The notes under the pieces are model-generated. The model ran no database searches. It saw nothing but the letters and a program-made list of their open reading frames with translations, and had not been told where the DNA came from. Below, piece by piece: positions 20,657-20,945 of a stretch of 64,000 nucleotides of DNA (position 1 is the stretch's first letter; the number at the start of each line of letters is the position of its first letter). This DNA is from Escherichia coli (lineage in GTDB: Bacteria > Pseudomonadota > Gammaproteobacteria > Enterobacterales > Enterobacteriaceae). Both the position numbers and the translations under genes were made by a program. The stretch lies in assembly GCF_044324875.1 (NCBI RefSeq), contig NZ_CP172185.1; one strand, written 5' to 3'.

Positions 20657-20756
20657 TCCCCCTCACCGCCATCTTTAAAGAAGAGCTCGTACGAAGGTAC
20701 GGGCTTTTTTTTCGTATATTGCACACACCGGGGGGATGAGAAGCCCCGACCGGGGT
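20657..20756 (+). repeat. att-like direct repeat copy 1 (degenerate tRNA-Ser 3' end plus terminator plus ~45 bp)
   Basis: tccccctcaccgcca...gctcgtacgaaggtacgggc T8 ...gggggatgagaagccccgaccggggt; near-identical to copy 2. Confidence 0.75.
20685..20712 (+). terminator. Intrinsic terminator hairpin (8-bp stem, GAAG loop, T8) in repeat copy 1
   Basis: gctcgtac-gaag-gtacgggc followed by tttttttt. Confidence 0.7.
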
Positions 20757-20833
20757 TCGACAACTGGCGACAGCCAGTTGGACAGACCGTGAACGCAGTG
20801 AGCGGGCTGCCCGCAGGGCGAGCGAAGCGAGTC

Positions 20834-20852
20834 AATCCCCCCCTCACCGCCA
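20834..20852 (+). other. 3'-terminal 19 nt of a tRNA-Ser gene (T-loop end, acceptor 3' strand CCTCACC, discriminator G, CCA): att core remnant
   Basis: AATCCCCCCCTCACCGCCA matches the 3' end of E. coli tRNA-Ser(GGA) as recalled; sequence upstream of it is not tRNA-like. Confidence 0.6.
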
Positions 20853-20865
20853 TATTTAAAGAAGA

Positions 20866-20894
20866 GCTCGTACGAAGGTACGGGCTTTTTTTTT
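20866..20894 (+). terminator. Intrinsic terminator hairpin in repeat copy 2
   Basis: gctcgtac-gaag-gtacgggc followed by ttttttttt. Confidence 0.7.
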
Positions 20895-20945
20895 CGTATA
20901 TTGCACACACCGGGGGGATGAGAAGCCCCGACCGGGGTACATTAG

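Follow-up and report, generated by a model that had tools for sequence, protein, structure and literature searches.

A serX island junction and the probable remnant of an RtT-type repeat array side by side in Escherichia coli

INTRODUCTION

tRNA genes are sites of tandem accretion of integrative or cis-mobilizable elements, and their 3' external transcribed spacers (3'ETSs) can give rise to small RNAs (sRNAs), such as 3'ETS-leuZ. In this study, we characterized a region at positions 20657 to 20938 of a 64,000-nt stretch of Escherichia coli DNA (contig NZ_CP172185.1 of RefSeq assembly GCF_044324875.1; the whole stretch is referred to here as the window). The region contains two similar segments, each carrying a 3' end piece of tRNA-Ser(GGA), and lies close to an integrase gene. 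The closest described systems are the genomic islands integrated at the tRNA-Ser genes serW and serX and the RtT repeats that follow the tRNA gene tyrT.

Among the former, OI-43/OI-48 (the tellurite-resistance/adherence island) of E. coli O157:H7 and the SRL island of Shigella flexneri are flanked by a 14-bp direct repeat, TGGCGGTGAGGGGG, and site-specific excision between the two repeats has been demonstrated experimentally for OI-43/48 (PMC3064760). The RtT element of tyrT corresponds to a stable, unit-length RNA that is released from the tRNA operon transcript and was detected experimentally, for tyrT only (Bösl and Kersten 1991, as cited in PMC3318445 and PMC2965389).

The island in the window resembles the serW/serX islands (SRL-PAI and OI-43/OI-48) in its identical core, its adjacent P4-family integrase gene, and its integration site at the 3' end of serX, as judged from the core, the integrase domain set, and the site. 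The cargo differs (i.e., ter, ure, and iha in the described islands versus raffinose/sucrose-type genes and an IS21 element in the window). The segments downstream of the core in turn resemble the tyrT RtT repeats, since both consist of ~180-bp tandem units located directly 3' of a same-strand tRNA gene, and each unit closes with the last 19 nt of that tRNA, CCA included. The tRNA-like parts of the serX units are those of tRNA-Ser(GGA), not of tRNA-Tyr.

RESULTS AND DISCUSSION

The two copies are parts of a resident serX-downstream array

We consider the region, with high confidence, to be the right-hand attachment site (attR) of a genomic island in the 3' end of serX, followed by a remnant of the RtT-type array that lies downstream of serX. 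The elements of this reading that are shown directly are the match to the DNA downstream of K-12 serX, the RtT homology, the attachment (att) core, the domain architecture of the integrase, and the variable copy number of the array.

A direct-repeat search returned two blocks, i.e., 20658 to 20712 versus 20839 to 20893 (55 nt; 98% identity) and 20705 to 20756 versus 20887 to 20938 (52 nt; 100% identity). These combine into a single copy pair of ~99/100 nt (20658 to 20756 and 20839 to 20938; 98 to 100% identical), which differs by one substitution (C20673 versus A20854) and one additional T in the T-run. Both copies comprise a piece of the tRNA-Ser(GGA) 3' end, a terminator hairpin, a T-run, and then 44 to 45 shared bases. 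The 14-mer CCCCCTCACCGCCA has two exact matches in the window (starting at 20658 and 20839), compared with a chance expectation of 0.04. In the second copy it is preceded by AATCC, which extends it to the 19-mer AATCCCCCCCTCACCGCCA (20834 to 20852), and both serX and serW of K-12 end in exactly this 19-mer; a preliminary description of this DNA had correctly assigned the fragments to tRNA-Ser(GGA).

The same description reported two tandem ~100-bp repeats. The repeats are real, but they are not arranged head to tail: their starts are 181 to 182 bp apart, and the 82 nt between them (20757 to 20838) are single copy in the window. The actual period is 181 bp, and the window contains one full unit (unit 1; 20672 to 20852, plus strand) and an 86-nt partial unit (unit 2; 20853 to 20938, plus strand), or ~1.55 units. 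The two "copies" are thus the stretches that recur where a resident array is present in ~1.5 periods, the first being the attR core with the start of unit 1 and the second being the end of unit 1 with the start of partial unit 2. Tandem Repeats Finder reported nothing at 19500 to 22000, because merely 1.55 copies of the 181-bp period are present, with 82 nonrepeated nt between the copies. ARAGORN detected no complete tRNA or transfer-messenger RNA in the whole window; therefore, neither copy belongs to a live tRNA gene.

Comparison with the serW and serX flanks of reference genomes had been set beforehand as the test of these assignments, and it revealed the expected similarity. In K-12 MG1655, which has no integrase gene in this neighborhood, serX is flanked by ghrA and ycdU and is directly followed by 3.3 tandem 181-bp units. 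Each of these consists of the serX terminator hairpin and T-run, ~45 nt (CGTATATTGCACACACCGGGGGGATGAGAAGCCCCGACCGGGGTTCGA), a 77-nt central part, and a copy of the last 19 nt of the tRNA. Alignment showed that positions 20672 to 20938 of the window are the same DNA as this K-12 serX flank. Unit 1 is near-identical to the K-12 units, with the terminator followed by an RtT-like element and a tail (the 19-nt tRNA-Ser 3' end copy at 20834 to 20852, plus strand) that holds the second 14-bp core (20839 to 20852). Partial unit 2 retains a terminator copy (hairpin at 20858 to 20893 plus T9) and the first 44 nt of the RtT-like element, including the 5' strand of predicted helix P1 and helix P2. It stops between GGGGT and ACATTAG within the pseudo-T-loop motif GGGGTTCGA, at an end point identical to that of the island-free genome Ecol_316.

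The far end of a Pantoea array, seen in prophage flanks, also falls within the pseudo-T-loop GGGGTTCGA (between GGGGTTCG and GCGTCTAG), and the K-12 array ends differently (between CACACACCGGG and TGCCCC). An array end inside the pseudo-T-loop in Pantoea and in E. coli genomes with the right-hand flank of the window (a DUF2726-family gene) may mark an old recombination junction or may be a coincidence.

The number of units varies independently of the island among four aligned genomes: 0.55 unit is found in Ecol_316 (no island), 1.55 in H1 as in the window, 2.55 in 03_3503, and 3.3 in K-12. Across 5,426 complete E. coli genomes, the number of full units ranges from 0 to 11, and a unit-specific 75-nt insert is present in 3,361 of them, at 1 to 11 places per genome. 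Six of the 8,003 places matching this insert are on plasmids. Unequal homologous recombination between the 181-bp units would be the simplest cause of these changes in array length.

The hairpins are the terminator of the tRNA gene

The strong terminator hairpins noted in both copies were confirmed by folding. The hairpin at 20677 to 20712 (−20.5 kcal/mol; z = −5.2) is followed by T8 and that at 20858 to 20893 (−20.8 kcal/mol; z = −6.3) by T9, and both have the arrangement of an intrinsic (Rho-independent) terminator, with a G+C-rich hairpin directly before a U-run. Because serW and serX of K-12 are both followed by the same hairpin, the hairpins are the tRNA gene's own terminator. A simple terminator scan flagged only the minus-strand reading, and an upstream A-tract renders the hairpin two-way. 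Rfam matches to MicC, Thr_leader, and Leu_leader at both hairpins (20 to 33 bits versus thresholds of 50 to 90) were discarded as terminator look-alikes.

K-12 serW has this terminator and no units. Downstream of serW, at the place where serX has its units, are CRISPR-type direct repeats (Rfam CRISPR-DR4; 50 bits; positions 1254 to 1281 of locus L006). The paralogous tRNA-Ser genes therefore share a terminator and differ in their 3' neighborhoods.

The first core is the attR of a serX island

The first core (20658 to 20671, plus strand) is the attR, or cryptic ser'X, of a serX-integrated island of more than 20 kb. The 14-bp sequence, common to island and tRNA, is an exact match to the last 14 bp of the tRNA; read on the opposite strand, it is TGGCGGTGAGGGGG, the published repeat (PMC3064760). 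The start of a P4-type integrase gene lies 160 bp away. The core had been recognized as an att core in the preliminary description, which also regarded copy 1 as a degenerate tRNA end with two fewer C's. The difference is genuine (5 versus 7 C's), but it exists because the bases left of the 14-bp core derive from the island attP. To the left of the core is island DNA (..caggcggt), and in an alignment of four island-bearing and island-free genomes this DNA is joined to CCCCCTCACCGCCA and the native sequence downstream of serX.

The integrase gene (19289 to 20497, minus strand; 402 amino acids) is located at the right-hand end of the serX island and reads into it. Its product is a P4-family tyrosine integrase, with the P4-type set of Pfam domains (Arm-DNA-bind_3, Phage_int_M, and Phage_integrase), and matches NCBIfam NF007246 with an E value of 2.9e-54, below the curated cutoff of that family. 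Strain 03_3503 has an integrase of 97% identity in the corresponding position, and the RefSeq relatives of the protein are labeled tyrosine-type recombinase/integrase.

The island arm adjoining attR contains two direct GTATGCCAT(T) repeats (20519 to 20540, plus strand), which are the only two matches in the window (0.61 expected; two or more in 11 of 100 shuffles). Two copies of the 9-mer GTATGCCAT are also found in a related island, that of NZ_CP136018, in the arm next to attL (positions 11025 to 11045 of locus L004), and these repeats are candidate arm-type integrase sites. The order in NZ_CP136018 is ghrA, intact serX, a 33-kb island, the integrase gene (minus strand), the repeats, the DUF2726 gene, and phoH. 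At its attL, intact serX passes directly into island DNA (CACCGCCA joined to gattacaagcgc).

These features indicate the following history. A P4-type integrase recombined an island attP, predicted to be of the form ..caggcggtCCCCCTCACCGCCAgattacaag.. with no unit sequence, with the last 14 bp of serX. Intact serX would now lie more than 20 kb leftward, beyond the window, and the hybrid core at 20658 to 20671 is joined to the old downstream DNA, consisting of one full unit and one partial unit, in an array whose length would be altered by unequal recombination.

The units are related to RtT of tyrT

Both local and whole-window Rfam scans placed RtT (RF00391) at 20716 to 20852 on the plus strand, with 46.3 bits against a gathering score of 45. 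The earlier suggestion that the shared segment might encode part of a small RNA was thereby borne out at the level of homology, since the stretch between the copies together with the second core matches the model above its gathering score. The K-12 serX units score 46.3, 46.3, and 36.1 bits, and at the tyrT-tyrV locus the four units, one of them the annotated rttR gene, reach 133 to 137 bits. The central insert of the serX units is 6 to 10 nt longer than that of tyrT and is diverged, hence 46 versus ~135 bits.

The similarity extends beyond the tRNA-derived tail. Aligned serX and tyrT units have in common the blocks GATGAGAAGC, CGAC, GGTTCGAC, GAGCG..AGC, CCCG.AGGGCGA, and AATCC..CCA, within the shared motifs GATGAGAAGC-NN-CGAC-NNN-GGTTCGA and CCCG-N-AGGGCGA. 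An alignment of eight sequences contains 68 invariant columns, including GATGAGAA, CGAC, GGTTCG, GAGCG, and AGC. The tRNA-specific positions are switched, with GGGGAAGG, CTTCG..AAGG, and CCTTCCCCCACCACCA in the tyrT units and GGGGGG, CCCCG..GGGG, and CCCCCCCTCACCGCCA in the serX units. The serX units also share the other RtT characteristics, i.e., a same-strand position 3' of a tRNA gene (in K-12), a tail equal to the last 19 nt of that tRNA with CCA, and a tandem period of about 170 to 180 bp (181 to 182 bp here and 178 bp for the tyrT units). Judged from these sequence features, the units are homologues of the tyrT RtT element.

The element of unit 1 has a predicted fold of −59.4 kcal/mol (z = −2.9), in which a closing helix (P1; 20730 to 20737 with 20835 to 20842) encloses two hairpins (P2, 20742 to 20747 with 20752 to 20757; P3, 20761 to 20768 with 20773 to 20780), all on the plus strand. 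In a set of 33 Ser-type units that spans many genera, pairing amounts to 96% for P1, 89% for P2, and 94% for P3, and compensatory double changes affect two pairs of P1 and three of P3. In the real register, 88% of cells are paired, whereas registers slid by 1 to 3 columns reach at most 49%. RNAalifold recovered P1, P2, and a short distal helix from the Ser-type alignment and missed P3, and for this reason helix support was counted as pairs on the single-sequence fold. Helices 4 to 7 of that fold (68 to 97% paired) are less certain and are not claimed.

Many RefSeq genomes, including K-12 derivatives, already carry the PGAP label "RtT sRNA" at the serX locus (e.g., positions 6217 to 6353 of locus L002 and 4881 to 5197 of locus L008). 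The labeling is patchy because the units score 36 to 46 bits around the 45-bit threshold, and the accompanying note "processed from tyrT transcript" cannot be right for serX-linked units. The feature in the window, an attR core and an RtT-type array side by side, is itself ordinary, already annotated biology.

By analogy with the RtT of tyrT, transcripts that read through serX would be cut at the tRNA-like ends by the tRNA-processing machinery, which would release an RtT-like RNA. Such release from a tRNA 3' trailer by tRNA-processing enzymes is a mode possibly shared with sRNAs of the 3'ETS-leuZ type, with which there is no sequence relationship. The array in the window is probably silent, because it is separated from the serX promoter and because a consensus scan of 20300 to 21100 found no promoter-like site.

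Several points weigh against the reading of the region as an island attR followed by an RtT-type array. The RtT score exceeds the gathering threshold by a slight margin (46.3 versus 45), and some units fall below it (36.1). The left end of the island and intact serX are located outside the window and were placed from related genomes. The consensus scan revealed no sigma-70-like promoter at 20300 to 21100 on either strand. Finally, the strong intrinsic terminator that opens every serX unit should limit read-through, unlike the situation at tyrT, where termination is Rho dependent and takes place within the repeats.

Alternative explanations

It is improbable that the units are independent sRNA genes with their own promoter, still expressed despite their separation from serX. 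The stable fold (z = −2.9), the conserved helices, the terminator after the unit, and the homology to RtT, an RNA detected experimentally for tyrT (as cited in PMC3318445 and PMC2965389), would all suit such genes. However, the scan described above yielded no promoter for them, and RtT itself arises by processing of the tRNA operon transcript and is not an independent gene. In addition, the first unit always follows a same-strand tRNA at a distance of 60 to 70 nt (~150 loci listed), which fits cotranscription.

Equally doubtful is the idea that the extra tRNA 3' end copies are secondary or decoy att sites, with the core at 20839 to 20852 usable for alternative excision or integration. This core is identical to the first, and recombination between attL and the second core would remove the island and one unit, leaving serX with 0.55 unit, as in Ecol_316. 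That state is equally explained by unequal crossing-over, and on the left of the core, toward the T-loop, the tRNA and the unit do not have the same sequence, a difference that may affect integrase binding. This island family was found at a unit core in 0 of the 5,426 genomes. A chimeric query composed of the last 94 nt of a unit and the first 104 nt of the island left end had no full-length match in these genomes, in which the neighbor of the island left end is in every case the tRNA itself; the idea that this island family uses unit cores as integration sites was dropped on this null result.

The preliminary description had interpreted the duplicated att cores as a sign of successive integration or excision events at one site; on this reading, the cores would be att scars of islands, and each event would have added a core and its flank. 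Several observations accord with this scheme: the first core is a genuine attR; every unit is bracketed by 14-bp-core sequences, as tandem accretion of integrative elements yields; the arrays are always at tRNA 3' ends, an integrase target; and in Pantoea a 45-kb prophage likewise lies between a tRNA-Ser fragment and two to five units. Tandem accretion and the window do share repeated segments that contain an att core 3' of a tRNA gene. Under accretion, however, the DNA between cores would be element derived and absent from island-free genomes, whereas the repeated segment here is resident, structured, and non-island, and it is present in island-free strains. K-12, with no integrase or island at serX, has the same units 3.3 times; therefore, island integration did not create the duplication. 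In the same vein, island-free Ecol_316 has serX and 0.55 unit with the right end point of the window, the attL side of the island in NZ_CP136018 contains no unit sequence, and none of the 5,426 genomes joins the island left end to a unit. Moreover, the identity between copies spans the entire unit and not merely a core, the conserved helices with compensatory changes would be needless in an att scar, and homologous arrays also occur 3' of tyrT. We consequently regard successive integration as very unlikely, the least probable of these alternatives. An ancient origin of the units as a miniature integrative element is conceivable.

A search of a phage collection with the whole region as the query gave a single 58-bp match and no evidence for phage-borne units; matches in IMG/VR were host flanks of Pantoea prophages together with three chance matches.

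Island cargo and chromosomal flank

Labels taken from near-identical islands assign to positions 1 to 16700 of the window an alpha-galactosidase, a major facilitator superfamily transporter, a GH32 hydrolase, a phosphotransferase system IIA component, a sugar-binding regulator, an AlpA-family regulator, and a DUF3987 protein, and therefore indicate a raffinose/sucrose-type metabolic island at serX. The integrase gene and the DUF3987 gene are separated by an inserted IS21-family element (16750 to 19168, plus strand; NCBIfam IstA, 284 bits; IstB, 258 bits). This element is missing from the eight closest islands of E. coli, whose sequences cover 87% of positions 1 to 20656 at 98.8 to 99.8% identity.

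On the right, the array is bounded by a DUF2726-family gene (20946 to 21632, minus strand; named from RefSeq labels in relatives), which is chromosomal flank and not part of the repeat. It sits between the serX array and phoH, where K-12 has ycdU, ymdE, IS3, dgcT, and pgaABCD. This flank is present in 1,043 of the 5,426 complete E. coli genomes, and strain GF4 carries the same island type beside the pga flank. Elsewhere in the window, Rfam matches at the gathering level were obtained for Ysr251 (22224 to 22417, plus strand; 191 bits), which faces the 3' end of phoH on the other strand, naRNA4 (45705 to 45783, plus strand; 79 bits), and the cspA thermoregulator (56466 to 56888, minus strand; 158 bits).

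RtT-like units in other species

Scanning one genome per species for TGAGAASCNNCGACNNNGGTTCG led to the identification of at least 120 loci with at least 178 matches, and RtT-like units were seen in about 100 species. Among the 178 matches listed, 153 are located no more than 1.2 kb downstream of a same-strand tRNA gene, namely, tRNA-Tyr(GTA) for 94 and tRNA-Ser(GGA) for 51 (both in many Enterobacterales), tRNA-Ser(GCT) for 7 (Pseudoalteromonas only), and tRNA-Arg(TCT) for 1 (a Paenibacillaceae metagenome-assembled genome [MAG]; positions 1600 to 1830 of locus L084). Four of the 25 other listed matches have an upstream tRNA and are too near the locus end to score. The remaining 21, with no tRNA within 1.2 kb, are contig- or locus-end cuts or apparent chance matches in unrelated phyla. 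Among the matches listed, the first unit begins 60 to 70 nt after the tRNA, and the tail has three or fewer mismatches to the last 19 nt of the preceding tRNA in 107 units.

Three segments of the unit (i.e., the P1 5' strand, both strands of the P2 hairpin, and the 19-nt tail) vary in step with the T-arm and acceptor sequence of the neighboring tRNA, even where that tRNA is a rare variant. For example, the tRNA 3' segment and the unit 5' strand are CCTTCTCC and GGAGAAGG for tRNA-Tyr of Pragia and Pantoea, CCCTCCC and GGGAGGG for tRNA-Ser of Photorhabdus, CCCCCTC and GAGGGGG for tRNA-Ser of Pantoea, and CCCTCCTGG and CCAGGAGGG for tRNA-Arg of the Paenibacillaceae MAG. Among 97 distinct units, those of the Tyr type have A-T and those of the Ser type G-C at P1 positions 5 and 6 (98 to 99% pairing), and at two P2 pairs T-A is exchanged for C-G (97% pairing). 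In 93 of these units, the P2 3' strand is identical to the final four bases of the T-stem 5' strand in the neighboring tRNA. A cross-control for P1 was weak (9.0 of 10 positions paired with the unit's own tail versus 8.0 of 10 with a foreign tail), because G pairs with both C and U, and the argument for matching is based on the position-specific switches instead.

Ser-type units of Photorhabdus, Pantoea, and Tenebrionibacter score 52 to 57 bits, above the Rfam RtT threshold, and a Pseudoalteromonas unit scores 41.9 bits (E = 1e-4). The tRNA-Arg unit of Paenibacillaceae has the same layout as the others (tRNA, terminator, element, tRNA 3' end, and terminator) but gave no Rfam RtT match at an E value of ≤0.1, and its homology to RtT is not established. 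In Pantoea, prophages of ~45 kb are located between a tRNA-Ser fragment and two to five units, in the same geometry as in the window (loci L131 to L139).

Tentatively, RtT-like units could represent a widespread class of structured elements 3' of particular tRNA genes, with tRNA-like parts matched to the neighboring tRNA, although we consider this generalization doubtful at present. The matching suggests either a function specific to the cognate tRNA (e.g., as a decoy in processing, as a structural switch, or as a reserve copy of the tRNA 3' end) or tRNA-templated spreading. No description of serX-linked or other non-tyrT RtT arrays, or of such matching, was found in the searchable literature; since most older journals are outside it, this absence is weak evidence of novelty.

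Significance

For the window itself, the importance of these results is small: the right-hand boundary of the serX island is fixed at 20658 to 20671, and the repeats, being resident chromosome, are unsuited for inferring the history of the island. At the level of the species, serX is followed by an array that varies in copy number beside a hot integration site and supplies extra perfect copies of the att core; therefore, programs that call att sites and island boundaries can be confused there. RefSeq labels the serX units inconsistently, with a note on tyrT processing that is inapplicable at serX. Of these results, only the cross-species matching of the units to the neighboring tRNA may warrant additional study. 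If tRNA-matched RtT-like units across genera are confirmed and prove to be new, the unsolved function of RtT would become easier to test.

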